The notes: generated from the letters alone by a model not told the origin. Positions 15,701 through 59,936 are shown, counted from the first letter of the stretch. The stretch: 64,000 nt of DNA from Candidatus Latescibacterota bacterium (GCA_965207885.1 OZ242311.1:5856001-5920000); one strand, 5' to 3'. Program-made: numbers and translations.

Positions 15701-16411
15701 TCAAAGGGTGGTTTTGTTTTCGTAGAGGGTTTGCAATTCGGATTCACTGATGTCTTTTGTCGATGCTTCGTGTACCAATTGGCCCTGGAAGAGGATGCCA
15801 AAGCGGTCTGCGAGTGCGAGGCCCCGCGCGAGGTCGTGTGTGACCAGGAAAATGGTGCGTCCTTCTGCTTTGAGGGTGGTGATTATGCTGGATAATACCG
15901 ACTGAGCCGATGTATCGAGGCCGGTGAAGGGTTCGTCGAGCAGGAGGATCGATGGGTGGTGTAAGATGGCCCGGGCAATGGCCAATCGCTGTTTCATGCC
16001 CCGTGAGAATTTTTGTATCCGATCGCGCTGGCGATTTTTCAGGCCAGCGGCGAGGAGGACTTCTTCAATGCGGGTATTGAGGTTTTGGAGACCGTACATG
16101 CGTCCGTAAAATGCGAGGTTTTCACGCGCCGTGAGGTCGTCGTAGAGCATGGTTTGATGCGAGATAAATCCGATGTTTTTTCGTATTTCATGCGGGTTGC
16201 GCCGGGTGTCTATACCGCTGACCCAGATGTCGCCCGATGATGGTTTTGATAGTGTGGCGATAAGGCGCAACAGGGTTGTTTTGCCCGCTCCGTTTGGGCC
16301 AAAGAGTGCAAATATACATCCCGTTGGTACGGTGAGGTTTATGTTTTGCAGGGCCGTGATATGACCAAAACGGCGGGTTGTGTTCTGTATGTCGATGGCC
16401 GATGTGTTCAT
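15701..16411 (-). CDS. ccmA: Heme ABC exporter ATP-binding protein CcmA
   Basis: GPNGAGKTT, FSRGMKQR, LLLDEP; adjacent to ccmB. Confidence 0.88.
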   Translation of the reverse strand: MNTSAIDIQNTTRRFGHITALQNINLTVPTGCIFALFGPNGAGKTTLLRLIATLSKPSSGDIWVSGIDTRRNPHEIRKNIGFISHQTMLYDDLTARENLAFYGRMYGLQNLNTRIEEVLLAAGLKNRQRDRIQKFSRGMKQRLAIARAILHHPSILLLDEPFTGLDTSAQSVLSSIITTLKAEGRTIFLVTHDLARGLALADRFGILFQGQLVHEASTKDISESELQTLYENKTTL

Positions 16412-17439
16412 TAGTTGCTATCTGACAGATCAATGACTTCGGCTTTGAGGGCATTGCGCCTGTTTTTGTAATCGTCTTCTGAGAGTTCGCCGCTTTCATA
16501 TCGCTCGTCGAGGTCGGCGATTTGTTCGAGCAGTATTGTGCGCCGATTGGGCACTGTTTTGAGCGTGCGCATGTACAGGACGAGGATTGCGACGACGACC
16601 ATACTGGCAGCAGCGATCCATATTGGGGTTTGTAAGTTGGATGCGGTCTCGGGCGATGAGAGTGCGATGTCGATCTGTGTGCCGGGCGCGAGTTGTTCGG
16701 CGCCAAAGCGCCGAAAGACATTGGTGCCCAATGTCACGTCCCCGAGGTCTCGAAGTACTGTTGTGGAGACGGGAGTATCAGTCGGCTGGACGAGCAAGTC
16801 CATGCCCGCGGTGGGATAAGTGATGCGTTGTGCGATGCGGTTGGACGGGGGTATGGAGAATGTGAAAAAGGTCTGGCTATTTCCGGGGATGATGGGACGC
16901 GGATCTACGAGTAATGTGCCGTGCAGGTGTACGCCTTGCGGTGCGCGGATAAAGTCGGTTACGCCGTCGGGCAGGGGTATTTCCAGGCCGTGACCGTGGT
17001 CGCCGCCCGTGAGGTAGGTGCGGTCGCCGTGGTTGTGGACGATGAAGATGTACGTGGCCGTGCCAGCCTGGGCGTCGAGGAGGATGTGGTGTGAAGATAG
17101 GGATATGGCGGTGTCGGATTCCGTGGTTTCAAATACGGGGATGTCAACGGTGTCGCCCGCGGGTGCCGGGTTGCCGGGATAGTCTATGCCGTTGTATCGG
17201 GCAAATAGCATGGGCGGTGGTTCGGCGCCCGGGTCTGAGGGAACGTCGAGGATGAATTGGCCTTTGCTGTCGGTGGTGTCGCGCATTACAGTGACGTCTC
17301 CAGTCTCATGGAGGATGTACGAGACTTCGACATCGGGTTCGGGACGGTTGAGGGTCTGGTTGATGACGCGACCCGTGAGCGCGAAGAGAGGGGTGGAAAT
17401 AAAAAGTATGAGAAATACCACATATGTCTGCCGTTCCAT
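16411..17439 (-). CDS. ccm-associated membrane-anchored hypothetical protein
   Basis: Signal peptide, beta-rich periplasmic part, TM helix, C-terminal IADLDERYESGELSEDDY. Confidence 0.6.
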   Translation of the reverse strand: MERQTYVVFLILFISTPLFALTGRVINQTLNRPEPDVEVSYILHETGDVTVMRDTTDSKGQFILDVPSDPGAEPPPMLFARYNGIDYPGNPAPAGDTVDIPVFETTESDTAISLSSHHILLDAQAGTATYIFIVHNHGDRTYLTGGDHGHGLEIPLPDGVTDFIRAPQGVHLHGTLLVDPRPIIPGNSQTFFTFSIPPSNRIAQRITYPTAGMDLLVQPTDTPVSTTVLRDLGDVTLGTNVFRRFGAEQLAPGTQIDIALSSPETASNLQTPIWIAAASMVVVAILVLYMRTLKTVPNRRTILLEQIADLDERYESGELSEDDYKNRRNALKAEVIDLSDSN

Positions 17440-17491: not shown

Positions 17492-17600
17492 GAATCATAC
17501 TCTAACCTACTCAATATCATCAACCTGCCCAAAACAGTCAATCTTTATTGATTCATCCACTGGCAGAGCATTCGTCGCGTGAACACACGCAACACAATGA
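17492..17600. pseudogene. Chimeric remnant: Rpn-gene fragment joined to a DUF433 3' end
   Basis: 17493-17580 aligns by eye with 18369-18456; aacacacgcaacacaatga matches 21015-21033. Confidence 0.7.
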
Positions 17601-17649
17601 GTTTATTTTCGGACTTGTTCACTTTTGAAGTCACACATCGCGTTTACTC

Positions 17650-17717
17650 AATCCATAACTTCTGGCAAACAACAAAGGCTACGTCTTTCGAGGCGTAGCC
17701 TTTCTCATTTTCTTTTT
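17650..17717 (+). repeat. Repeat A copy 1 (terminator-like hairpin)
   Basis: ataacttctggcaaacaacaaaggctacgtctttcgaggcgtagcctttctc. Confidence 0.9.
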
Positions 17718-17724
17718 GTTCAAT

Positions 17725-17859
17725 CTATCCCATAACCTCTATTTTCACATCTCCAGTTGTGCCATCATAAGAAAGCCCAACAAGAACCATCATTGTTGGG
17801 CCTGATGCGATTAGGTCATCCGGATTCTCAAATCCTACTTTGGTAGATTTTGTTGGCAT
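17725..17859 (-). pseudogene. 44-aa ORF, probably an internally deleted retropepsin-like protease gene
   Basis: MPTKSTKVGFENPDDLIASGPTMMVLVG fused to LSYDGTTGDVKIE; no DTG core. Confidence 0.4.
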
Positions 17860-18134
17860 TGTGCGCTCTCAAATTTAATAGTGGGAGCTGCACTCAAAAC
17901 TGTAGGTAATCCACTTCTGTATAGACTTTCTGGTGCTCCAACTTGAAGGATCAAGAAAACGCGGTCTCTGAATTTTTTGACAGCTTCGAGTATCGCTTCA
18001 TCCTCCGTATCAAAGACCCCATTGAGTTCACCTTCGTAGATAATGATCCACTTACCAAAGTGGTCAAGCTCAAGCCCTTCTTCGCACAATTTGTTGTACG
18101 CGGAAATTTCATCTTTAAGTGTCCTGGCCTTCAT
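17835..18134 (-). CDS. Small DUF5678-like protein
   Basis: HFGKWIIIYEGELNGVFDT..EA....FLILQVG. Confidence 0.55.
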   Translation of the reverse strand: MKARTLKDEISAYNKLCEEGLELDHFGKWIIIYEGELNGVFDTEDEAILEAVKKFRDRVFLILQVGAPESLYRSGLPTVLSAAPTIKFESAQCQQNLPK

Positions 18135-18256
18135 GGCTGCATCTCTCTTTGGGTTGGAGTATCTCTTTAAGATTTTTTACAATAGGTCTTCCATGATCTA
18201 TTGTCAACACATTGTATGAGGCAAGGAGACCTTCAATGGCGCGTTGCCTACCCGCC

Positions 18257-18964
18257 TTACTCTCTGCCTTGCTCAATGCCTTCTTGCTTAATGTATTGTG
18301 CAAAAGACGATTCACGCATAATAGCATCCATAAGACCCTCCTGTGATAGAATACGATTGATTAGTGTCGAATCATACTCTAACCCACTCAATATCATCAA
18401 CCGACCCAAAAGGTCAACTTTTATTGATTCATCCATCGGCAGCGCATTCGTCGCGTCAACACAGTGACGCAACCACGCCTCCGAATCCATTCCAGCAGGA
18501 CGTTTCATCAAAGGCACGAACGGAAACAAGCCCGAAGGTCCGCCATCAATAATGTCCTGTCCTTCTATCTCACTGAGCCGAATCACTCTGTATTCTACCA
18601 AAACATCATAGCCGGGCAAGTCCTGGATATAGCGTCCCGGATCGCGCCGACCTGCACTGCGCCGCAAGTAGATCACACTGGAATAAATCGGCAGACCGTG
18701 ATGCCCAATCGCACGCATAATATAGCCAGCCATGCGGCGTGGCATAGATGGGTCGTCAGTGGTTTGAAATTTGTAGTGTATCAATGCCTCCTCACCTGCG
18801 ATATGGGTGCGGATGAGGCTATCGGTATGCCGTGTATCAACCGTGTCTTGCTCTGTGTCGAGTATGTCCAGAACTTCTACATCGTCCTGTCCAAACGTGA
18901 ATCGGATGAAGTCTTTGGGATAGGTCTGGATGAGATGTTTGGAGATGGTTTCGTATTTGGCCAT
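18257..18964 (-). CDS. Rpn/YhgA-like (PD-(D/E)XK-type) protein, C-terminally truncated
   Basis: TDSL...HYKFQT..DPSMPRRM..Y; MRESSFAQYIKQEGIEQGRE then premature TAA. Confidence 0.7.
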   Translation of the reverse strand: MAKYETISKHLIQTYPKDFIRFTFGQDDVEVLDILDTEQDTVDTRHTDSLIRTHIAGEEALIHYKFQTTDDPSMPRRMAGYIMRAIGHHGLPIYSSVIYLRRSAGRRDPGRYIQDLPGYDVLVEYRVIRLSEIEGQDIIDGGPSGLFPFVPLMKRPAGMDSEAWLRHCVDATNALPMDESIKVDLLGRLMILSGLEYDSTLINRILSQEGLMDAIMRESSFAQYIKQEGIEQGRE

Positions 18965-19258
18965 GTGAAATACCTCGCGTCTGATGGGGTGAGTAAGTGG
19001 GATACGCGCAACATTCAGACCTAAAGCAAATGGCAGGCCAAAAATGGTAATTCTCCAAAAATTGAGCGATAATTTGTGTTAGAATATGTCTAAATACTTT
19101 AAATATGATATTTTACGCACTTGTTCACAATCTGAATTTAAATCTGCAGATGGCCGCACAGCCGCACAGATGAAAGGCGAGAGGGTACATTTTGAGCGAT
19201 GAATGGGCAGTCAGGTGAAAGATATGTACCGCTTGACCATGTGGTGATGATTCTTGCG

Positions 19259-19316
19259 TAATCTATAACTTCTGGCAAATAACAAAGGCTACGTCTTTCG
19301 AGGCGTAGCCTTTTCT
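19259..19316 (+). repeat. Repeat A copy 2
   Basis: taatctataacttctggcaaataacaaaggctacgtctttcgaggcgtagccttttc. Confidence 0.9.
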
Positions 19317-19537
19317 TATACCCTTGCAAAATTTTCTGCCTGATCTACGCAACTTCACAATACTTCGTTTTCGGGCCTTGTGTGGAGCGATTTGGGAAAT
19401 TTTTTGAAAAATCGGTTGCGCTGTAATCCCTAATCCCGTATGATCAAAAAATTATACTCGCACAGGTGAAAAGCCTTTGGGTGGGCTGCGTTAGAGGTGA
19501 TGTAGGCCACCCGAAAAAGACACCGAAGGAGGTTGTT

Positions 19538-19936
19538 ATGGCTGAAGCCACCGTGAAGTCAATACAGGAAGAAAATCCTATCTATCCATTCTCTTATCAG
19601 TTGTGGAGAAATGCTTTACATTTAGATGAGAATCTACGCTCCTCTGTTGAAAATATAGAATTACAAACGGAATTTATACTATCTACTACTGGTCAATGGC
19701 CTATCGTTGCTGAAAAATCTGATGATGGGTCGTGGGCAGTGTATTTTAAGGATTCTCCAGATATAATCGCGGGGAGTAATGATAGTTTGGAGGACGCATT
19801 AGTTGGTTTAGCAGAAATTGTTAATGACGATCTTCAGGACAGCAGAGAAAACAAAGATAACATCTCTCCGTATCAGGCAAAACGGCATCAGTTTCTGAGA
19901 AAGGTTTTCTATCGCGAGGCTGAAATTATCACTTAA
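19538..19936 (+). CDS. Hypothetical protein with HicB-like segment
   Basis: GGAGG RBS; DDGSWAVYFKDSPDIIAGSNDSLEDAL. Confidence 0.5.
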   Translation: MAEATVKSIQEENPIYPFSYQLWRNALHLDENLRSSVENIELQTEFILSTTGQWPIVAEKSDDGSWAVYFKDSPDIIAGSNDSLEDALVGLAEIVNDDLQDSRENKDNISPYQAKRHQFLRKVFYREAEIIT

Positions 19937-19995
19937 TCTATAACTTCTGATAAACAACAACGGCTACGTCTTTCGGGGTGTAGCCTTTTCTCATT
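19934..19995 (+). repeat. Repeat A copy 3
   Basis: taatctataacttctgataaacaacaacggctacgtctttcggggtgtagccttttctc. Confidence 0.88.
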
Positions 19996-20114
19996 GCGTC
20001 AACATATTGACGCAGCCACGCTTTCAAACTGCTCTAAATTCACGTCTTTCCATTAGCCACACGTCCTTTGCAAATAACCTTGACGTGTGCATCATTTGTG
20101 CATATATTTGTTTT

Positions 20115-20390
20115 ATGAATTATCAATGGGATCCAGAAAAAGCAGAATCAAATTTTCTTGCACATGGTGTTGATTTCGCTGACTCAGTTGGCGTATTTGA
20201 GGATGTCTGGGCATTGACCTTGAAAGAAGAGATTGAATCGGGAGAGCAAAGATTTGCCACTCTTGGTACCGATTTTTTTGGACGAATTTTGGTTGTCGTT
20301 TATACATATCGAAATGAAGACATCCGTTTAATTTCCGCTCGTCCCGCAACGCGTCGGGAAAGGAGAATATATGAGAAAAAAAGAATATAA
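20115..20390 (+). CDS. BrnT-family toxin
   Basis: WDPEKAESN...HGVDF...EQR...VVVYTYR...IRLISARPA. Confidence 0.9.
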   Translation: MNYQWDPEKAESNFLAHGVDFADSVGVFEDVWALTLKEEIESGEQRFATLGTDFFGRILVVVYTYRNEDIRLISARPATRRERRIYEKKRI

Positions 20391-20631
20391 TTTTGAGACC
20401 GCCCAACAAGGCCCTGTAGTTCAGCCGCCACCCGGCAAGACGCGCATCACCATCCGCCTTGACACAGACATTCTGAATTGGTTTAAGAGACAAGTTCACG
20501 AAGCAGGGGGCGGAAATTATCAGACGCTTGTGAACCAGGCCCTCAGAGACCACATCCAGGCTAACAATGGCGCATTGGAACAAACACTACGCAAAGTCAT
20601 TCGCGAAGAACTCGGTTCACACGCAGTATAA
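20371..20631 (+). CDS. BrnA-family antitoxin
   Basis: KTRITIRLDTDILNWFK...GNYQTLVNQALR. Confidence 0.9.
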   Translation: MRKKEYNFETAQQGPVVQPPPGKTRITIRLDTDILNWFKRQVHEAGGGNYQTLVNQALRDHIQANNGALEQTLRKVIREELGSHAV

Positions 20632-20706
20632 CAAATTTGCATCCCAAAAACATTTGACAATGTATAAAATCTCGGGCTTGCCAATGGGGTGTACGTAATT
20701 CGAAAA

Positions 20707-21033
20707 ATGAACCAAAACGAGGCCCAGTATGTCATCTACAAAACGGGATTTCGAGGGTGTCCGGGAACATCCCATATCATCACAAATAATCAGATTTTGG
20801 GCGGAGAGCCAATTATCAAAAATACGCGCACACCTGTTCGGGCAATTGTTGAAGTTTGGCGTTTGGGCACACACCCCGAAAATATTCCAAACCACCTTCC
20901 CCATTTGTCTTTGAGACAAGTTTTTGATGCCCTGAACTATTACAACGACCATCAAGAAGAAATAGAAAAATATATTGAAGAAAATCGCATTCCCAACAGA
21001 TTGATCGATCCCCTAACACACGCAACACAATGA
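20707..21033 (+). CDS. DUF433-domain protein (possibly frameshifted at 5' end)
   Basis: ILGGEPIIKNTRTPV...HLSLRQVFDALNYY. Confidence 0.75.
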   Translation: MNQNEAQYVIYKTGFRGCPGTSHIITNNQILGGEPIIKNTRTPVRAIVEVWRLGTHPENIPNHLPHLSLRQVFDALNYYNDHQEEIEKYIEENRIPNRLIDPLTHATQ

Positions 21034-21094
21034 TAAATCAGATCCGATATATCTAATATATATCGGCCGTGATGCTCAATCGCACATCCGATGA

Positions 21095-21149
21095 CAAACA
21101 ACAAAGGCTACGTCTTTCAAGGCGTAGCCTTTTCTCATTCTCTTTTTTT
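21095..21149 (+). repeat. Repeat A copy 4 (5'-truncated); probable terminator of the ccmF-H unit
   Basis: caaacaacaaaggctacgtctttcaaggcgtagccttttctcatt. Confidence 0.85.
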
Positions 21150-21205: not shown

Positions 21206-21598
21206 TTAATTTTTTCCTGCTCCACCGTGTTTTCTTCTGGTGCGGCGAATGGCGGCGATTTCTTTTTCTATCTGGTCGGAGATTCCCTGCGGTTTGGGGG
21301 CGGGACGGTCTGCCTGGCTGGAGGCTTTGTCGAGGGATTTGATGAGTTCTACGGCCTGCGCTGTATAACGGGCGCGGGTTTGCCGGTAGTCGTCTTCTTC
21401 GACTTTTCCCATGCGGTGGTCAAAGTCGAGTTCGCGGATGGCTTCATAGACCATGTCGCGCTGTTCGATCAGTTCGCGGCGTCGCGCTTCTCTGCGGGAG
21501 ATCTGGTTGATGGTATTGGCGTCGCGGGGGTCGAACAGTGGTGTGAATACAAAGAGCAAGATGCCCGCTGCGATGAGGATAAAAGCGGCAATGGTCAT
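21206..21598 (-). CDS. ccm-associated small membrane protein (CcmI N-terminus-like)
   Basis: TM helix then AIRELDFDHRMGKVEEDDY. Confidence 0.65.
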   Translation of the reverse strand: MTIAAFILIAAGILLFVFTPLFDPRDANTINQISRREARRRELIEQRDMVYEAIRELDFDHRMGKVEEDDYRQTRARYTAQAVELIKSLDKASSQADRPAPKPQGISDQIEKEIAAIRRTRRKHGGAGKN

Positions 21599-22056
21599 CA
21601 CTCGCGCTCCTTGAGATCGCTTTCGAGGCGGTCGAGGTACGGGTCGTCGCGCGCGGGTTGTGCTGCTGGTGTGGCGGGACTTTTTGTTTTTGACCAGGCG
21701 CGGAGTACGCTGCGTACGGCGAAGAATCCGATGAGGAGAACGAGGGGCGGCATGAGCCATGCCGTGAGGTTGAAGCCTTTGGCTGGCGGTTTGGAGAGGA
21801 TTTCCAGGCCAAATTCACTGATATAAGCATCGACAATGGCCTGTGGCGTTTGACCGGAGGCCAGCATTTTTTTGATGCGTTCGTGCTGTTGTTGTGCATA
21901 TCCGCAGATGCATTCGTCCAGTGGTCTGCGCGGGCAGTCGCCGCACAGGCAGGCGAGTTCTTTGCCGACTTCTTTGATCTGTTCCCGGGTCACTTCGGCG
22001 CGGACGGGTATTGCGAAGAGGAGAAAGAATATTGGGATCAGGAGTGCGGGCTTCAT
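21598..22056 (-). CDS. ccmH: Cytochrome c biogenesis protein CcmH
   Basis: LACLCGDC, FGLEILSKPP..GFNLTAWLMP. Confidence 0.8.
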   Translation of the reverse strand: MKPALLIPIFFLLFAIPVRAEVTREQIKEVGKELACLCGDCPRRPLDECICGYAQQQHERIKKMLASGQTPQAIVDAYISEFGLEILSKPPAKGFNLTAWLMPPLVLLIGFFAVRSVLRAWSKTKSPATPAAQPARDDPYLDRLESDLKERE

Positions 22057-24038
22057 GCCATCGCCTCCCGCATTTGCAATGCCTGTTTTTCGCGTTTGTC
22101 GGGCCACATGACGACGATGGTGCCGATTGTGATTATCCACGCGCCTATCCAGACCCACATGACGAGGGGGTTGATGTACAGGTGAAAGAGGGCGACTTCT
22201 TCGCCGTCTCGCATGTCAACGCCCTGATAGAGCGCGTAGAGGTCTTCGCGCAGGTTGGAGCGGATGGCGACTTCTGTGGTGGTTTGTTGATCCTGTCGTT
22301 TGTGATAGACTTTCTGGTGGGGCCACATGGTGCCCAGTCGCTGTCCGTGTTTATAGACGCCGAGCTGGGCGACGATGTCCCAGGTGAGTGGATTGGCGGA
22401 TTCGGTAATGCCTTCATACGTGAGGGTGTAGGGTCCGATTGAGGTGGATTCCATGTATTTGAGTTCGACCTGGGAATCTTTGTTGAATGCATTGCCGGTA
22501 AATCCGATGAAGAGCAGGACCACGCCAAAGTGGATGATATAACCGCCATATCGGCGGCGATTTCGCCGGGTGAGGTTGACGATGGCGCGGAGATAGGATT
22601 CGCCAGAACTGCTGCCGCGTGCACGCGCGCCGCGGTGAAATTCGGTGATGATTGTGCCTGTGACAAAGCCGCAGAAGAGGAAGGAGATGATGGCGTAGAT
22701 GTCGCGTACACCGAGGGCGATGGCGACGATGCCGCAGATCAGTCCCATGATGCTCGATCCCGTGAAGTGTTTTCTCAGGCTTTTGCCCGAGGTGCGCCGC
22801 CAGGCGAGCAGAGGTCCTATGCCCGTGAGTACGAGCAGGAGCAGGCCGATGGGGACCATGACGGTGTTGAAGTAGGGGGGACCTACGGTGATTTTGTCAC
22901 CGGTAACGGCTTCGGAGATCACGGGAAACATGACGCCCCAAAAGACGGCGAATGTGGCGGTGAGGAAGAGCAGGTTGTTGAGCAAAAATCCACCTTCGCG
23001 CGAGATGGGGGATTCGTATTGTGTTTTGGTTTTGAGCAGGTCCAGGCGCGAGACGAGGAGGAGGCTTGAGAAGATGACTATCAGGACGACGAGTACGCCA
23101 AACCAGGGTCCAATGGGGGACTGGGCAAATGCGTGTACAGAGGATACGACGCCGCTTCGGGTGAGGAAGGTGCCGTAGATGCACAGGGTGTAGGTGGCGA
23201 TGATGAGGACCATGTTCCAGATTTTGAGCATGCCTTTTTTTTCCTGGATCATGACGGAGTGCAAGAAGGCCGTGCCCGTTAGCCAGGGCAAGAGGGCGGC
23301 GTTTTCGACCGGGTCCCAGCCCCAGTATCCGCCCCAGCCGAGGACGACGTAGGCCCATTTGCCGCCGAGGAGTTGGCCCGTGCCCAGGAAGAACCAGGCG
23401 AGGAGGGTCCAGCGGCGGGTGGTGCGAATCCATTCTTCGTCGATTTGTCTGGATAATAGGGCGGCCATTGCAAAGGCAAAGGGTACGGTAAAGCCGACGT
23501 AGCCGTGATAGAGCATGGGGGGGTGGATGGCCATGACGGGATGGACGAGCAGGGGGTTCATGCCCGTTCCATCGGGCAGGGCGCGCGGCATGGTGACAAA
23601 TGGATTTTCGTGGATGCAGATGAGCGCGAGGAAGAAGGTCAGCGTGAAGGACATGATGGCCGTGGCATAAGAGGCGAGGGGTCCGCGAAAGGCACGGGTT
23701 TTGATGACGGCAAAGAATATGAATCCGGATAGGATCAATGCCCAGAGGAGGAGCGATCCCTGCATGCCGGACCAGACGGCCGTGAATTTGTAACCGGTGG
23801 GCAGGTCGCGGCTGGAGTGGGTGGCGATGTAGTAGATGTCGAAGCGGTCTGTGAGGAAGAGCACTTCGAGAATGGCCATGGCGGAGAGGCAGAGTACAAA
23901 ACCCGTGAGGACTGCACGTTCAGTGCTCAGTATAAGGCCCATTCGCCGGGTTTTGGCTGCTAATATTGCGGCGATTACCGCATAAGCCGAGGTGAATAGG
24001 GCGATGTAAAGAAGAAAGTTGCCGAGTTGTGGGAGCAT
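22053..24038 (-). CDS. ccmF: Heme lyase CcmF/NrfE
   Basis: HPPMLY, LGWGGYWGWDPVEN, TRSGVVSSVHAF, NPLVMWVWIG. Confidence 0.95.
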   Translation of the reverse strand: MLPQLGNFLLYIALFTSAYAVIAAILAAKTRRMGLILSTERAVLTGFVLCLSAMAILEVLFLTDRFDIYYIATHSSRDLPTGYKFTAVWSGMQGSLLLWALILSGFIFFAVIKTRAFRGPLASYATAIMSFTLTFFLALICIHENPFVTMPRALPDGTGMNPLLVHPVMAIHPPMLYHGYVGFTVPFAFAMAALLSRQIDEEWIRTTRRWTLLAWFFLGTGQLLGGKWAYVVLGWGGYWGWDPVENAALLPWLTGTAFLHSVMIQEKKGMLKIWNMVLIIATYTLCIYGTFLTRSGVVSSVHAFAQSPIGPWFGVLVVLIVIFSSLLLVSRLDLLKTKTQYESPISREGGFLLNNLLFLTATFAVFWGVMFPVISEAVTGDKITVGPPYFNTVMVPIGLLLLVLTGIGPLLAWRRTSGKSLRKHFTGSSIMGLICGIVAIALGVRDIYAIISFLFCGFVTGTIITEFHRGARARGSSSGESYLRAIVNLTRRNRRRYGGYIIHFGVVLLFIGFTGNAFNKDSQVELKYMESTSIGPYTLTYEGITESANPLTWDIVAQLGVYKHGQRLGTMWPHQKVYHKRQDQQTTTEVAIRSNLREDLYALYQGVDMRDGEEVALFHLYINPLVMWVWIGAWIITIGTIVVMWPDKREKQALQMREAMA

Positions 24039-24062: not shown

Positions 24063-24308
24063 CTATGAACTCTGTTCATGTGCTTTCAGCAGGCGTGCTG
24101 GGTCCTTTGCATACAGTTCAGTATAGCCGCATGCTCCGCATACCTGTGCCTTTAATCGCACGCGAACCCCACCTTTGAAAAGCCGGGCGTGAGGTTTCGT
24201 TTGCACTCGAACTGCCAGACTCTCCGCATGGCTTTCTAGATCTATAACCTGGACATCGTTTATTACCTGAGTAGATTCACATTTGAGACATTTTTCGGGG
24301 TTCGTCAT
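24063..24308 (-). CDS. Small zinc-ribbon protein
   Basis: CLKC...VCGACGYTELYA. Confidence 0.7.
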   Translation of the reverse strand: MTNPEKCLKCESTQVINDVQVIDLESHAESLAVRVQTKPHARLFKGGVRVRLKAQVCGACGYTELYAKDPARLLKAHEQSS

Positions 24309-24349
24309 GAGGCACCTCGGATGATGTGTTTGGGTCTTTTGTTAGAGAA

Positions 24350-24502
24350 TCAGTCCTCGAGTAGCATTTCTAACACTTCTTTCAGGTTTCTATTCAGTTC
24401 ATCCAGTGTCTTACCCTGAGAATGTGCACCGGGAAAATCAGGTACATAACCTACATATAATCCAGTATTCTTACAATATTCTATTACAGCCGTAAAAGGC
24501 AT
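24350..24502 (-). CDS. HicB-family antitoxin (50 aa, orphan)
   Basis: YVGYVPDFPGAHSQGKTLDELNRNLKEVLEMLLE; below ORF-track cutoff. Confidence 0.8.
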   Translation of the reverse strand: MPFTAVIEYCKNTGLYVGYVPDFPGAHSQGKTLDELNRNLKEVLEMLLED

Positions 24503-49894: not shown

Positions 49895-52620
49895 ACAAGT
49901 CCGATCAACGAATTCGCAAGTTCAATCCGGGGACGTTTCAAACCGACGAGGAAGTGATTGAGCAGTTCGTAGTCAGGAAACGCGAACTCAGTATCGTGCT
50001 TGAGGTGCTACGCGGAAATATCGATTCACCATCGTGCCAGCACGTTTTGGTGGTTGCACCTCGTGGTCGGGGAAAGACCATGCTGCTCGCGCGGATCGCG
50101 GCGGAGTTGAATACTGATGACGGACTCTCCGAATGTCTTCTACCAGTTCGGTTCATGGAAGAGAGTCACGAGGTACTCAATATTGCCGATTTTTGGCTCG
50201 AAACCCTGTTCCACCTTGCGCGGGAGAGCGCCAGGCACGATTCCGATCTCGCACGGGAACTGCGAGAGACACACGCCGATCTGATTGATCGCTGGCGCGA
50301 AAAGGAACTCGCAGATCGCGTCCTTGCTGCTGTCCTGGACGCATCGGACCGGCTGGGCAAAAAACTCGTTCTCATGGTCGAAAATCTACAGACACTCTGT
50401 GAAAACGTGGACGCCGATTTCGGCTGGCAGCTACGTGGCGCATTGCAATCGGAACCACAGATCATGCTGCTCGCCACCGCTACGAGTCGCTTCAAGGGTC
50501 TGGAAGATGCCAAGGAGCCGTTCTTCGAGCAGTTCCGAATACTGGATCTGGAACCATTAAACACAAAAGAATGTCGTCGTTTGTGGCAGGTCGTCAGCGA
50601 CGACCAGGTGAGCAATCGCGATATCAGGCCGCTCGAGATTCTGACCGGTGGCAATCCCCGCCTCCTGGTCATCGTCGCCGAATTCGCGCAGCACCGGTCA
50701 TTGCGCCAGTTGATAGAAGAACTGGTGACATTGATTGATGACCATACCGAGTATTTCCGCAGTCATCTGGAGGTCCTGGCCAGCGTCGAACGCCGTGTGT
50801 ATCTCGCGTTGCTTGACCTTTGGGATCCCTCTAAGGAACCGTCAAGTGCGGGTGAGATCGCGGCGCGCGCGCGCATGGATGTTCGAATCGCATCGACTAT
50901 GCTCAGACGACTCGTCGATCGGGAGATGGTCATCTTTAAGGGTACTGGTAGAAAGAGATGGTACGAAGCTGCAGAAATTCTCTACAAATACTACTACAAA
51001 CTGCGACGCGAACGCGATGAGACAGCGGTTGTAGCAAATCTAATCCACTTTATGGCGGTGTTTTATAGCAAAGCGGAACTGGCTGAGATGTCCGATAAGC
51101 TGATTGCGGAGGCGGCGCAATTGCCGGTGATTCGCAAGGGTGTTGAACGGGTAATCGCCGAACAGCCTCAAGTCGGCAGTGTGTTCTCTAACATAGTGCG
51201 GCCAAGCATTGATCAGACATCTGAACTCGCTACATTAATTGACAAAGAGAGCGTCGAACGATTGTTCGAAGATATTACTACAGCTTTAACAGAAGAGGCA
51301 TTCGAGAAGGTTATCGAGACTGTGGACCGAGCTTTTGCTGCTTGGAGCGCAAATGGGTATCAAGTGCCAGAGCCATTGATCGCTGTGGGATTTTTTTGCA
51401 AGGCGTTTGTACACGAGCAATTCGACGATTACGCAGTGGCGTTAGCGTCTTATGGTGAAGTGATCGCGCGTTTAAGTAGCAGCGGTGCACCCGCTTTCCA
51501 GACTTTGGTCGCTTGGGCATTGTTCAGCAAGGGAAATGTGCAAGTAAAACTTGAGGAATTTGCATCGGCGATAGCGACTTATGATGAAGTGATCGCCCGC
51601 TTTGGCTCCAGCGATGCACCGGATCTCCAGGCTCCGGTCGCATGGGCATTTTCCAAAAAGGGAGATATGCAAGTAAAACTCGATGAGTTTGCGTTGGCGT
51701 TAGCATCTTATGACGAAGTGATCGCCCGCTTTGGCTCCGGCGATGAGCCGGATCTCCAGGCTCCGGTCGCTTGGGCATTGTTCAGCAAGGGAGATGTGCA
51801 AGTAAAACTCGACGAGTTTGCGTTGGCGATAGCATCTTATGACGAAGTGATCGCCCACTTTGGCTCCAGCGATGCGCCGGATCTCCAGGCTCCGGTCGCT
51901 TGGGCATTTTCCAAAAAGGGAGATGTGCAAGTAAAACTCGATGAGTTTGCGTCAGCGATAACGTCTTATGATGAAGTGATCACACGTTTTGGAGACAGCG
52001 ATACACCCGATCTCCAAGTGGTAGTAGCTTTGTCATTGTCTGACAAGGGAGATGTGCAAGTAAAACTCGGCGATTGCGTAGCGGCGGTAGCGTTTTATGA
52101 TGAAGTGATCGCGCGCTTTGGAGACAGTGATGCACCCGGTCTCCAGGTTCCAGTCGCTTTGACATTGTTCAAAAAGGGTTTGACACAAATTAAGATGGGC
52201 AGTGCGGAAGAAGTTCTACACACCTGTGAAGAGCTTGAAAGAAGACTCGATGCCTTAACTGGCAATGAGAAGGTCGAGTTTACATGGCGCGCAAGGTGTG
52301 TGCGGGCTTTGGCACTACTGGTCCAGAAAAAACGTCAAGCCGCCGTGAACGCGTTCCGGTCTGCGTATGCTGTGTTCGAATCTGACAACGAAATGGTGAT
52401 AAATGAGATGCTATATTTTGTGACCGAATTGATCGCAAAAGGTGCCTCGGAGCGTGACCTTATCGAGATCCTGTCCAGCGACAAAGAGAAATCTGATACT
52501 TTAGTACCCCTCATCGTTGCTCTGCGACAGCGTACCGGCGAGGGGGTTCGCGCGCCTGTAGAAGTCCTTGAGGTCGCGAAGGATATCAACAAGCGCATTG
52601 AAAAAAGAATGGCGAATTGA
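49891..52620 (+). CDS. STAND-like ATPase-wHTH-TPR-repeat protein
   Basis: APRGRGKT, atypical Walker B LVLMVEN, TGGNPR, EIAARARM, six 42-aa TPR-like repeats; ATGA-coupled to the upstream ATPase. Confidence 0.8.
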   Translation: MNKSDQRIRKFNPGTFQTDEEVIEQFVVRKRELSIVLEVLRGNIDSPSCQHVLVVAPRGRGKTMLLARIAAELNTDDGLSECLLPVRFMEESHEVLNIADFWLETLFHLARESARHDSDLARELRETHADLIDRWREKELADRVLAAVLDASDRLGKKLVLMVENLQTLCENVDADFGWQLRGALQSEPQIMLLATATSRFKGLEDAKEPFFEQFRILDLEPLNTKECRRLWQVVSDDQVSNRDIRPLEILTGGNPRLLVIVAEFAQHRSLRQLIEELVTLIDDHTEYFRSHLEVLASVERRVYLALLDLWDPSKEPSSAGEIAARARMDVRIASTMLRRLVDREMVIFKGTGRKRWYEAAEILYKYYYKLRRERDETAVVANLIHFMAVFYSKAELAEMSDKLIAEAAQLPVIRKGVERVIAEQPQVGSVFSNIVRPSIDQTSELATLIDKESVERLFEDITTALTEEAFEKVIETVDRAFAAWSANGYQVPEPLIAVGFFCKAFVHEQFDDYAVALASYGEVIARLSSSGAPAFQTLVAWALFSKGNVQVKLEEFASAIATYDEVIARFGSSDAPDLQAPVAWAFSKKGDMQVKLDEFALALASYDEVIARFGSGDEPDLQAPVAWALFSKGDVQVKLDEFALAIASYDEVIAHFGSSDAPDLQAPVAWAFSKKGDVQVKLDEFASAITSYDEVITRFGDSDTPDLQVVVALSLSDKGDVQVKLGDCVAAVAFYDEVIARFGDSDAPGLQVPVALTLFKKGLTQIKMGSAEEVLHTCEELERRLDALTGNEKVEFTWRARCVRALALLVQKKRQAAVNAFRSAYAVFESDNEMVINEMLYFVTELIAKGASERDLIEILSSDKEKSDTLVPLIVALRQRTGEGVRAPVEVLEVAKDINKRIEKRMAN

Positions 52621-57878: not shown

Positions 57879-59936
57879 TTATGACGTTTTTTTGCCGAAG
57901 GCACTGGCAAAGATCAGAAAATCGCTAAACCCAATCATGCCATCCCCATCCAGATCGAATCGCGCTTCATATCCTTCGTCGTCCTGACTTAACCCGAATA
58001 GTGCTACAAATTGCAAAAAGTCGGCAAAATCAACAGTGCCATCGCCATCAAAATCGGGTATAGGAGATTGAGGTATTATATATGGCGACATATCCCACAG
58101 CAGAATGATGCCATATAATGATCCGGAAGCGAGTATTTTTCCATCTGGCGAAAACGACAGGGAATGGCTATCGAGCAAGTGTCCTTCAAGAGTAGCGATA
58201 TTTTCTTTCGTTGCAACATCCCATAGCCTGACCGTGCCACCACTTGGTCCGGAAGCGAGTATTTTTCCATCTGGCGAAAACGACAGGGAACGGACTGAGA
58301 ACACATGTTTCAGAGTAGCGATATTTGTGTGTGTCTCAACATCCCACAGTTTGACCGTGCGATCATTTGCTCCGGAAGCGAGTATTTTTCCATCGGGTGA
58401 AAACGATACTGAATAGACCAAAGACTTGTGTTCAAGAGTAGCGATATTTGTGTGTGTCGCAACATCCCACAACTTGACCATGTTGTCACTTGCCCCGGAA
58501 GCGAGTATTTTTCCATCGGGTGAAAACGATAGCGAATTGATATAAGACGTATGTCCTTCAAGAGTAGCGATATTTGTGTGTGTCGCAATATCCCACAGCT
58601 TGACCGTATTATCGGCTGCCCCGGAAACGAGTGTTTTACCATCTGGCGAAAACGATACAGAACGGACCAAAGACGTATGTCCTTCAAGAGTAGCGATATT
58701 TGTGTGTGTCGCAACATCCCACAGCTTGACCGTATTATCGGCTGCCCCGGAAACGAGTGTTTTACCATCTGGCGAAAACGATACAGAACGGACCAAAGAC
58801 GTATGTCCTTCCATGGTAGCGATATTCGTGCGTGTCTCAACATCCCACAACCTGACAGTGCGATCCCCGAATCCAGAAGCGAGTATTTTGCTATCGGGTG
58901 AAAACGACACAGAATAGACCCGAGGCGTATGTTCCATGGTAGCGATATTTGTGCGTGTCGCAACATCCCACAGCTTGACTTTATCGTTACTTGCCCCAGA
59001 AGCGAGTGTTTTGCCATCTGGCGAAAACGATATGGAATTGATATAAGACATATGTTCCATGGTAGCGATATTTGTGCGTGTTGCAATATCCCACAGCTTG
59101 ACCGTATTATCGGCTGATCCAGAAGCGAGTATTTTGCCATCTGGTGCAAACGATAGAGAATTGATAAAAGACGTATGTCCTTCCAGAGTAATGATATTTG
59201 TGTGTGTCGCAACATCCCACAGCTTGACCGTGTCATCATTTGATCCAGAAGCGAGTATTTTGCTATCGGGTGAAAACGACACGGAATAGACCGTAGAAGT
59301 ATGTTCCAGAGTAGTGATATTTGTGCCTGTTGCAACATCCCATAGCTTGACTGTATCATCATTTGACCCGGAAGCGAGTATTTTGCCATCTGGCGAAAAT
59401 GATACAGAACGGACCAGACCTGTATGTTCTTTAAAGGTAGCGATATTTGCGCCTGTTGCAACATCCCACAGTTTGACCGTTTTATCCCATGACCCGGAAG
59501 CGAGTATTTTGCCATCTGGTGCAAACGATACGGACGTGATAAAAGATGTATGTCCTTTAAAAGTAGCGATATTTGTGCCTGTTGCAACGTTCCACAGCTT
59601 GATATTGCCATCGTTAGCTCCGGAAACGAGAGTCGTCCCATCTGGTGCAAACGATACGGATTCGACATGTGTCATGTGTCCAGCCAGTAGCGCGAGTTCA
59701 CGAGAGGTTGTCACATCGTAAATCCACACACCAACGGTACTTGCCACTGCGAGGCGTTGACCATTCGGAGAAAATACAATAGCCTTATCACTGCCGCGAC
59801 CGAGGCGTCCTTTGCCCAGACGGGCGATTGCCCCATTGGGTAAATGCCACTGCGGAGACGCATAGCTGACAGACAAGAGGCTGAGCAATGCAAAAAGGCA
59901 GATGCACAATCGGATTGGAAAGACGAAGGCTTTCAT
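57879..59936 (-). CDS. Secreted WD40-repeat protein (14 blades) with C-terminal dockerin/EF-hand
   Basis: Repeated SVSFSPDGK.LASG..D.TVKLWD; PDFDGDGTVDFADFL. Confidence 0.92.
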   Translation of the reverse strand: MKAFVFPIRLCICLFALLSLLSVSYASPQWHLPNGAIARLGKGRLGRGSDKAIVFSPNGQRLAVASTVGVWIYDVTTSRELALLAGHMTHVESVSFAPDGTTLVSGANDGNIKLWNVATGTNIATFKGHTSFITSVSFAPDGKILASGSWDKTVKLWDVATGANIATFKEHTGLVRSVSFSPDGKILASGSNDDTVKLWDVATGTNITTLEHTSTVYSVSFSPDSKILASGSNDDTVKLWDVATHTNIITLEGHTSFINSLSFAPDGKILASGSADNTVKLWDIATRTNIATMEHMSYINSISFSPDGKTLASGASNDKVKLWDVATRTNIATMEHTPRVYSVSFSPDSKILASGFGDRTVRLWDVETRTNIATMEGHTSLVRSVSFSPDGKTLVSGAADNTVKLWDVATHTNIATLEGHTSLVRSVSFSPDGKTLVSGAADNTVKLWDIATHTNIATLEGHTSYINSLSFSPDGKILASGASDNMVKLWDVATHTNIATLEHKSLVYSVSFSPDGKILASGANDRTVKLWDVETHTNIATLKHVFSVRSLSFSPDGKILASGPSGGTVRLWDVATKENIATLEGHLLDSHSLSFSPDGKILASGSLYGIILLWDMSPYIIPQSPIPDFDGDGTVDFADFLQFVALFGLSQDDEGYEARFDLDGDGMIGFSDFLIFASAFGKKTS

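Follow-up and report, generated by a model that had tools for sequence, protein, structure and literature searches.

A small toxin-antitoxin (TA)/defence islet, hypervariable and genus-specific, lies within the cytochrome c maturation (ccm) cluster of a Candidatus Latescibacterota bacterium, and it is punctuated by a direct repeat, here called R, which is confined to one locus of one genus of sponge-associated Latescibacterota. The stretch analysed (the window) is 64,000 nucleotides (nt) long, and its source genome (G000) is a single contig of 6,228,721 bp; G numbers denote genomes, L numbers the loci or contigs pulled for comparison, and X numbers the sequencing runs. The runs that contain the stretch are sponge metagenomes. 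The islet occupies the sole intergenic gap of the ccm cluster, with p342-ccmABC on one side and ccmFH-p184 on the other. We lean, with some reserve, towards the explanation that it is a variable islet anchored on an rpn-like gene, in which a shared terminator gained copies through segmental duplication and occasional illegitimate joining and may act both as a terminator/insulator and as portable homology for ordinary recombination.

Variable TA or defence hot spots between core genes are common; the entry and exit of modules without a recombinase are seldom visible. At this locus a single, locus-specific, terminator-like repeat marks the joints, and 15 related species provide a natural series with one to four copies.

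A direct repeat at a single variable locus

A repeat finder places R as a four-copy direct family (D1) at 17640-17709, 19250-19319, 19925-19994, and 21069-21138, with 70-100% identity to the reference copy. The 30-nt hairpin core lies at 17674, 19284, 19959, and 21103, always on the plus strand and with 0, 0, 3, and 1 mismatches, respectively, while 100 shuffles of the sequence gave no match. The four same-oriented copies at about 17650, 19259, 19934, and 21095, which an earlier note on this DNA (the original prediction) had described, are therefore confirmed. Its length of ~55 bp was too short, since the consensus gives a unit of ~62-76 bp; 35 copies from 16 genomes align in ~76 columns with a mean column identity of 85%. 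In copy 4 and its relatives the right ~50 nt are clearly common to R and the left arm is strongly diverged.

R has eight copies in its own 6.2-Mb genome, four at the locus and four in a near-identical second copy of the locus. Since all strong matches in the 6.2 Mb sit at these two places, R is not a dispersed repeat of the repetitive extragenic palindromic (REP) or miniature inverted-repeat transposable element (MITE) type, a possibility that the original prediction had raised itself and that the relatives do not bear out either. Sixty genomes of relatives were searched, comprising 20 other members of the genus and 40 genomes of other genera. R was found in 15 of the 20 (E 4e-16 to 3e-30), always between p342 and p184; copies number one to four per genome, always in direct orientation. 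It was absent from the remaining five genus genomes and from all 40 genomes of other genera, where the best match (G024, E=0.0076) belongs to a terminator unrelated to R, which follows another gene and lies beside an apparent tRNA.

The exact 24-nt hairpin was also searched in a species-representative genome collection, viral contigs, and metagenome contigs. In the genome collection it occurred only in records of Candidatus Latescibacterota or uncultured Latescibacteria and in one 4.2-kb 'Poribacteria' contig (L033); there was one match in the metagenome contigs and none in the viral contigs. L033 does not place R in Poribacteria: the contig carries genes of the same locus (p342 N-terminus, BrnA, HicB-like gene, and DUF433) and is therefore probably misbinned. 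Neither a second R locus nor a plasmid-like contig with R was found in the own genome or in the genome, viral, and metagenome collections.

The interval between p342 and p184 varies from 0.58 to 9.2 kb in the 15 genomes, which agrees with the integrase-free hypervariable hot spot in the ccm cluster that had been proposed. The shortest (578 bp, G017) holds a truncated Rpn-like gene and one R; most genomes have 1.4-3.8 kb, and G002, G014, G015, and G019 have 6.8-9.2 kb. The recurrent modules are an Rpn-like gene, either a long form beside p342 or a short form with a DUF5678-like gene and a small open reading frame (ORF); a HicB-like gene, alone or paired with a HicA-like one; BrnT/BrnA; and DUF433 with or without DUF5615. 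Past the last R, the cargo comprises DDE, IS256-type (IS, insertion sequence), and TnpB transposases, two DNA methyltransferases, a leucine-rich repeat protein, a HigB-like/helix-turn-helix pair, and zinc-ribbon proteins. The left anchor p342 is present in 18 of the 20 other genus genomes and adjoins the islet in all 15 that have the repeat, and p184 adjoins ccmH in every genus locus examined. In G011, G016, and G018, which lack R (loci L025-L027 and L051-L053), the ccmFH-p184 and p342-ccmABC blocks lie 0.4-1.2 Mb apart, split exactly at the islet gap.

As the original prediction expected, the cargo varies between relatives, and some of the differences are exact repeat-to-repeat units. G003 corresponds to G017 with an additional unit of BrnTA-DUF433 plus R, and G000 corresponds to G010 with an additional HicB-like gene, R, BrnTA-DUF433, and R; in each pair, the lone R of the shorter locus aligns with each of the two copies that bound the extra segment in the longer one. 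The same modules are also joined to different neighbours at R. The BrnT module has an R variant of its own and comes after the Rpn flank in G003 but after the HicB-like gene in G000, and the DUF5678/short-Rpn module follows a DUF433 relic in G000 and G010, an Rpn relic in G005, G012, and G014, and a HicA-like end in G007.

A 775-bp tract of G001 (HicB-like gene, HicA-like gene, and R) has 92.0-93.9% identity to G012 and G015, whereas ~12 kb of flanking core genes have only 74.8-85.1%; the tract of high identity stops ~20-35 nt past R. Therefore, a cassette together with its R was exchanged between species at this locus. A milder case is G008 against G019, with 96.0% in the tract and 88.8-93.1% in the flanks.

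Features of the islet and form of the repeat

The features of the locus in the window are listed below, from left to right; the flanking genes (ccmC-ccmB-ccmA-p342 on the left, and p184, which is CcmI-like, with ccmH and ccmF on the right) are all on the minus strand.

15701..16411, minus strand: ccmA (ABC ATPase), conserved left flank; Pfam ABC_tran E=4e-35; followed by ccmB and ccmC on the same strand
16411..17439, minus strand: p342, conserved left anchor with no assigned function; weak SHOCT match, 23.1 bits against 27
17492..17587, minus strand: relic of the Rpn-like gene, middle part; duplicated from 18369-18463 (direct-repeat families D3 and D6, 85-93% identity)
17583..17649, plus strand: relic of the DUF433 3' end and 3' untranslated region, running into R copy 1; from a sequence match to the second haplotype
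17650..17714, plus strand: R copy 1 (hairpin 17674-17703); -19.6 kcal/mol, z -5.05
17725..18134, minus strand: small ORF (17725-17859) and DUF5678-like ORF (17835-18134), downstream of the short Rpn-like gene
18257..18964, minus strand: Rpn-like gene, short form, 235 aa; TIGR01784 under cut-off; stops inside the four-residue repeat
18965..19258, no strand assigned: upstream flank of the Rpn-like gene, leading into R copy 2; common to other rpn paralogs
19259..19324, plus strand: R copy 2 (hairpin 19284-19313); -22.1 kcal/mol, z -4.96
19539..19936, plus strand: HicB-like ORF (tentative label); Atlas lead of 0.84 to HicB antitoxin clusters; start set by a ribosome-binding site
19934..19999, plus strand: R copy 3 (hairpin 19959-19988); two G-U wobbles in the stem
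20115..20631, plus strand: BrnT toxin (20115-20390) and BrnA antitoxin (20371-20631), the only pair that looks intact
20689..21033, plus strand: DUF433 gene without a DUF5615 partner; Pfam DUF433 57.4 bits, above cut-off
21095..21143, plus strand: R copy 4, with diverged left arm (hairpin 21103-21132); -19.4 kcal/mol, z -6.01
21206..21760, minus strand: p184, CcmI-like right anchor; TIGR03142 17.7 bits, below the 29.3 cut-off
21598..24038, minus strand: ccmH (21598-22158) and ccmF (22053-24038), conserved right flank; Pfam CcmH 67.1 bits, CcmF_C 194.5 bits

The modules of the window genome appear mostly decayed, with the HicA-like gene gone and DUF433 without DUF5615, and BrnTA alone looks intact. 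BrnT and BrnA form a type II TA pair with overlapping genes (BrnT_toxin 88.7 bits, cut-off 34.5; BrnA_antitoxin 43.7 bits, cut-off 26.1), and a promoter-like site lies ahead of BrnT at 20080-20108. A second BrnT/BrnA copy at 353,040-353,610 of the genome is 94% identical to window 20064-20635 and has no R; since it ends in a different terminator of its own, the modules are not tied to R. The HicA-like partner, deleted in the window, is kept in G001, G004, G005, G012, and G015 as a protein of 93 aa (HicA_toxin 20.4 bits against 27), and DUF5615 is present in G008, G015, and G019. DUF433 is probably frameshifted near its 5' end in the window genome (20729-20800): contigs of two other samples have an extra C at 20770, and the homologue in L033 begins at an ATG that is out of frame in the window genome.

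Not all of the labels first given to this cargo could be kept. Those of BrnTA and DUF433 stand, with scores above the Pfam cut-offs. The DUF5678 match is below it (E=0.005, 17 bits against 23.2), the small ORF at 17725-17859 gave no match in a family search, and the pair they form also occurs in G005, G006, G007, G010, G012, and G014. Pfam and NCBIfam gave no match for the HicB-like ORF, the name of which comes from the Atlas lead, and a supposed protease relic matches no family, even with E<=10 allowed. The Rpn relic beside p342 translates to LGRLMILSRLEYDS, which resembles Rpn-like proteins, and window 17582-17710 has 95.5% identity to the stretch 3' of DUF433 in the second haplotype.

The islet appears to be anchored on a distant Rpn-like TA nuclease gene on the minus strand. 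TIGR01784 scores are 12.9 bits for the window copy, 17.9 for that of G003, and 30.2 for that of G015, all under the 52.1 cut-off, and there is no Pfam match; in the Atlas, a full-length relative scores 0.96-0.97 against clusters that contain DUF4351 or bear the name 'Rpn family'. The identity is told mainly by the run of four-residue repeats (EQGI type) before a conserved C-terminal domain, which varies from about one to 13 copies among genus members. The 235-aa window copy stops inside this run and lacks the C-terminal (antitoxin) domain. It reads HYKFQT, as do other short forms, whereas the full-length copies and the four paralogs in the genome read H-x-EFQT (the comparison included window 18257-18964, L052 8323-9372, and L021 9339-10667). 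We take the ExQ of Rpn-like proteins to be part of a PD-(D/E)XK-type catalytic motif (D ... E-x-Q); in all of the short forms ending in the repeat except that of G012, Lys replaces this presumed catalytic Glu. The window copy thus looks inactive, and the short forms offer a natural example of toxin inactivation alongside loss of an intragenic antitoxin domain. Rpn TA nucleases are described as carrying variable four-residue repeats before a small C-terminal domain, and their genes as tending to sit in defence islands, forming arrays by tandem direct duplication, and having no terminal repeats, in those parts of the report that were available (Zhong et al. 2023, PMC10400941). At this locus, the growth of a small defence islet in uncultured sponge symbionts is linked to an Rpn-like gene, with its four-residue repeats and decay forms.

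The core of R has a 13-bp stem, a UUCG-type loop, and a T-tract, the sequence after the loop and stem being TTTTCTCATT (also given as TTTTCTCAT). It has the sequence features of an intrinsic (Rho-independent) terminator on the plus strand, i.e. a G+C-rich stem-loop followed by a T-tract. The fold energy is -19.4 to -22.1 kcal/mol in copies 1, 2, and 4 (z -5 to -6) and -12.0 in copy 3, and a terminator scan picked up copies 1 and 3 in full. Among the aligned copies, 99.3% of the stem cells pair. The four stem pairs that vary switch only to G-U or A-U on the plus strand, and the commonest U-G pair would read as an A-C mismatch on the opposite strand; this fits an RNA hairpin of the plus strand and hence a putative terminator of plus-strand TA operons, which point toward the minus-strand ccm genes. 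The suggestion that R begins at the TAA stop of the preceding plus-strand ORF in copies 2 and 3 is right for copy 3, which contains the stop of the HicB-like ORF (19934-19936), and wrong for copy 2, where no plus-strand ORF of at least 40 aa ends and sequence reading gives only a 19-codon frame. Copy 4 lies ~60 nt past the DUF433 stop, and copies 1 and 2 have no intact plus-strand gene ahead of them in the window genome. Two other identities for R were rejected: the sole Rfam match, STnc380 at copy 4, is at chance level (27.6 bits against 60), and a minus-strand mini-ORF of 18 codons across R, judged by eye with no formal test, has a stop that is not conserved and mostly non-synonymous changes. 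The RNA runs (n=6) contain only 0.05-0.07 of the words of the stretch at contig level.

Two further observations concern other parts of the window. Just upstream of ccmF (24063-24502), the ccm cluster is bordered by another small TA-like insertion, with a HicB_lk_antitox/UPF0150-like ORF (50 aa, 24350-24502) and a zinc-ribbon ORF (24063-24308). The stretches 51437-52178 and 58119-59660 are internally repetitive, with self-matches at offsets of ~126-130 bp and multiples (78-83% identity), and are probably tandem repeats inside large genes.

Origin of the repeat copies and turnover of the modules

A course of events that would fit the locus is as follows. R would consist of one intrinsic terminator and ~30 nt of upstream sequence resembling the upstream flank of the rpn gene itself. 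It may have two roles, namely to end plus-strand TA operons, whose transcripts would without it run antisense into the ccm genes, and, as a direct repeat of 62-105 bp, to serve as portable homology. Additional copies would derive from the rpn region, duplicated segmentally (in tandem), and from a small number of illegitimate joins by which other TA modules came to lie ahead of R. Once several copies were present, ordinary homologous recombination could delete R-to-R units and reassort the modules, and DNA of related strains could replace modules, anchored in R and in the ccm genes on either side; none of these steps would involve a dedicated recombinase. Direct repeats of 62-105 bp that are ~90% identical are expected to recombine in any RecA-proficient cell.

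The left arm of R continues the upstream flank of the Rpn-like gene, and an rpn paralog at 4.553 Mb has a homologous flank up to the first bases of R with no hairpin after it. Relics and second copies of the rpn-like gene are found within islets, and Rpn relics adjoin R copies. Since G011 has an Rpn-like gene directly after p184 with no hairpin in between, the Rpn-like gene is older at the site than R. With no hairpin after the ccmFH-p184 block of G011 and a left arm that resembles the rpn flank, the duplicated native terminator of the original prediction finds no support.

Polymorphisms in R give some indication of where exchange took place. The R variant ...CTGATAAAC... is common to G003 copy 1 and G017, which share the left context and differ in the right, and also to G003 copy 1 and G000 copy 3, which share the right context and differ in the left. 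Because informative variants track the left context in some comparisons and the right in others, exchange points seem to lie at several positions in R, as homologous recombination predicts and a fixed site-specific crossover does not. The mapping used polymorphism patterns only, since the ends of homology are uninformative when every copy has the whole repeat, and few events stand behind it; recurrent change or conversion may explain the variant pattern.

The reality of the array itself is hardly in question. The first ~125 kb of the contig are a patchwork of copies of two other regions (95-99.7% identical): the part at ~1-66 kb repeats 5.83-5.89 Mb, and with it the locus, in inverted orientation, and that at ~66-125 kb repeats 6.155-6.225 Mb in direct orientation. 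Window 1-36858 recurs at the start of the contig, nearly unchanged and inverted. This might suggest an artefact of assembling a repeat-rich metagenome bin, a chance that we regard as close to negligible. A contig from another study (run X5) covers window 18524-21033 with copies 2 and 3, differing by 3 letters and 2 gaps, and the assemblies of 15 other species, several of them single contigs, have R arrays at the same locus; the array is therefore taken as real, and the worry about an assembly artefact voiced in the original prediction is set aside. The first ~125 kb look like a second strain haplotype assembled into the chromosome, and in the run that is its probable source the two haplotype variants have similar depths (59.7 and 86.6). 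Between BrnA and DUF433, the second haplotype has an IS605-type element with TnpB only (L001 5415-6539; 374 aa; OrfB_IS605, Cas12f1-like TNB), which removes the DUF433 5' end and is absent from the window's copy.

Several observations weigh against homologous recombination at R as the main source of change. The two haplotypes of the assembly differ by this TnpB element, which is away from R, and by 2.27 kb of extra cargo starting at the right edge of R copy 4; among the recent structural variants seen, one only has an edge at R. The joints in contigs of other samples (17416>17764, 17819>18287, 19909>20662, and 20635>20024) are none of them R-to-R. No R-to-R joint was seen in the contigs of runs X1, X5, X7, and X11, which is uninformative either way as contigs drop rare forms. 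Modules also abut without R (BrnA and the HicB-like gene in G004, DUF433 and the HicB-like gene in G012), and in G002, G008, G014, G015, G019, and G020 much cargo lies past the last R and is not closed by another copy. After the T-tract, five to seven unrelated right-hand contexts start at nearly one point, to within a few bases, which pure homologous recombination alone is insufficient to explain. As regards the terminator, no compensatory covariation was seen in the stem of the R alignment. Breakpoint clusters are enriched within 25 bp of R (77 of 315, against 23.0 expected), but the repeat in part produces this count by its presence, the genomes are related, and the events are not independent; the enrichment is thus partly circular and is taken only as weak support for R as a joint.

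Some of these points would suit a simpler account, in which the R copies are passive scars of tandem duplication in the rpn region, as reported for rpn arrays in the parts of that report at hand (PMC10400941), and have no share in later change; variability would then come from deletions, illegitimate recombination, and independent IS insertions in a gap under little constraint. The Rpn relics that adjoin R copies, the IS elements (DDE, IS256-type, and TnpB) and unrelated cargo in the islets, the lack of an edge at R in most recent variants, and the ccm cluster split at the same gap in G011, G016, and G018 are all in its favour. We nevertheless think it rather unlikely, as two species pairs differ by exact R-to-R units, the same modules are joined to different neighbours at R, the transferred tract of G001 ends at R, and repeats of such length and identity (62-105 bp, ~90%) would be expected to recombine. 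Quite another account would make R a true site- or structure-specific recombination site, where an enzyme acting in trans recognises the palindrome and inserts or excises units of a module plus R. The common start point after R would be natural on this account, as would direct, near-identical sites between unrelated modules and the movement of a cassette with its R between species. The core of R is an almost perfect 12-6-12 palindrome with a 4-6 nt centre, although any terminator hairpin has the same form.

Enzymes that could act on such a site exist in the genome, which holds four tyrosine recombinases (PF00589; two Xer-like and two other) and four further rpn paralogs with the intact EFQ motif; that one of the former, or an intact Rpn-like nuclease paralog, works on R seems improbable. 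No tyrosine recombinase lies in the window, the nearest being ~57 kb away, and a recombinase gene is found in none of the 15 islands, with none among the 62 proteins scanned with Pfam (17 plus 45). The original prediction saw no intI gene or GTTRRRY end, and the array is indeed not an integron: the best integron integrase (IntI) score in the genome is 88.6 bits with TIGR02249, against a cut-off of 265, and the attC core motifs RYYYAAC (R'') and GTTRRRY (R'), 40-140 nt apart, occur in none of the 38 R copies on either strand. All sites are direct, unlike the alternating pdif sites; by the polymorphisms, crossovers fall at more than one place in R; the Rpn-like copy within the islet of the window genome is truncated and has KFQ at the presumed catalytic ExQ; R turned up at no second locus and on no plasmid-like or viral contig in the collections searched; and recent variants rarely break at R. 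In view of all this, a specific recombination site is an unlikely reading of R.

A related possibility, which we rate as very doubtful, is an integrase-independent cassette system in which a structure-specific nuclease cuts at the base of the R hairpin and repair captures, deletes, or swaps units of R plus a module. The best candidate nucleases would be the intact, Rpn-like 'recombination-promoting' proteins, which serve as islet anchors in several species and of which the genome has four paralogs. If true, this would explain the common start point of unrelated modules after R and would mean that Rpn proteins help to build defence islets. There is so far no sign of a new enzyme. The undescribed cassette mechanism of the original prediction is not supported, given that crossovers appear to fall at different positions in R, as homologous recombination would give, that modules join without the repeat in G004 and G012, and that a single recent variant has an edge at it; its observation is confirmed, and its interpretation is partly supported. 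If the preferred explanation by ordinary homologous recombination is all there is, the locus would be a neat example and not a new principle. A testable question is whether a shared 3' sequence alone is enough for module turnover or whether the hairpin is a target.

Comparison with known systems

The literature at hand, in the parts available, gave no description of a repeat-punctuated TA array or of this locus in Latescibacterota. Integron cassette arrays without an integrase are known as CALINs, i.e. clusters of attC sites lacking integron-integrases (Cury et al. 2016, PMC4889954, as far as the sections at hand go). As in CALINs, small modules, many of them TA, are each followed by a same-oriented imperfect-palindrome repeat, no integrase is adjacent, and the repeats are alike within the array. 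Unlike CALINs, the islet lies in a genome without IntI, R is a perfect terminator hairpin without attC cores and limited to one locus and genus, and the modules have their own promoter-like sites and are partly on the opposite strand. The co-oriented, mostly promoterless single-ORF cassettes of integrons are not seen here: the Rpn-like and DUF5678-like genes are on the opposite strand, and promoter-like sites precede BrnT. Since IntI and attC cores are both absent, an assignment to integrons or CALINs fails.

The pdif sites, found mostly on plasmids, are Xer sites of 28 bp whose orientation alternates. Such XerC/XerD sites bound the dif modules of Acinetobacter, which, in those parts of the reports that were available, resemble the islet in being small, often TA modules with short palindromic sites and no linked recombinase, shuffled between replicons or strains (PMC6449649, PMC13141974). 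In contrast, all 38 R copies are direct, chromosomal, and at a single locus, and R has no likeness to dif by eye, without a formal comparison. To some extent the islet behaves as CALINs and dif modules do, yet by the features tested it falls in neither group.

The rpn arrays offer a closer parallel in part. As described in the available sections of Zhong et al. 2023 (PMC10400941), they share with the islet an Rpn-like anchor with variable four-residue repeats, relics or a second copy beside it, defence/TA neighbours, and the lack of inverted repeats or target duplications; those sections do not describe a shared terminator repeat that punctuates unrelated TA modules. The islet proteins also differ from the rpn family in that they score under the TIGR01784 cut-off. 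The 'minimal mobile elements' of Neisseria hold variable cargo at a fixed site between conserved genes and are exchanged by homologous recombination with the flanks. The islet is like them in its fixed chromosomal site, its strain-variable cargo, and the lack of an integrase; it is unlike them in that its cargo is subdivided by an internal, locus-specific repeat and that some of its differences are exact repeat-to-repeat units.

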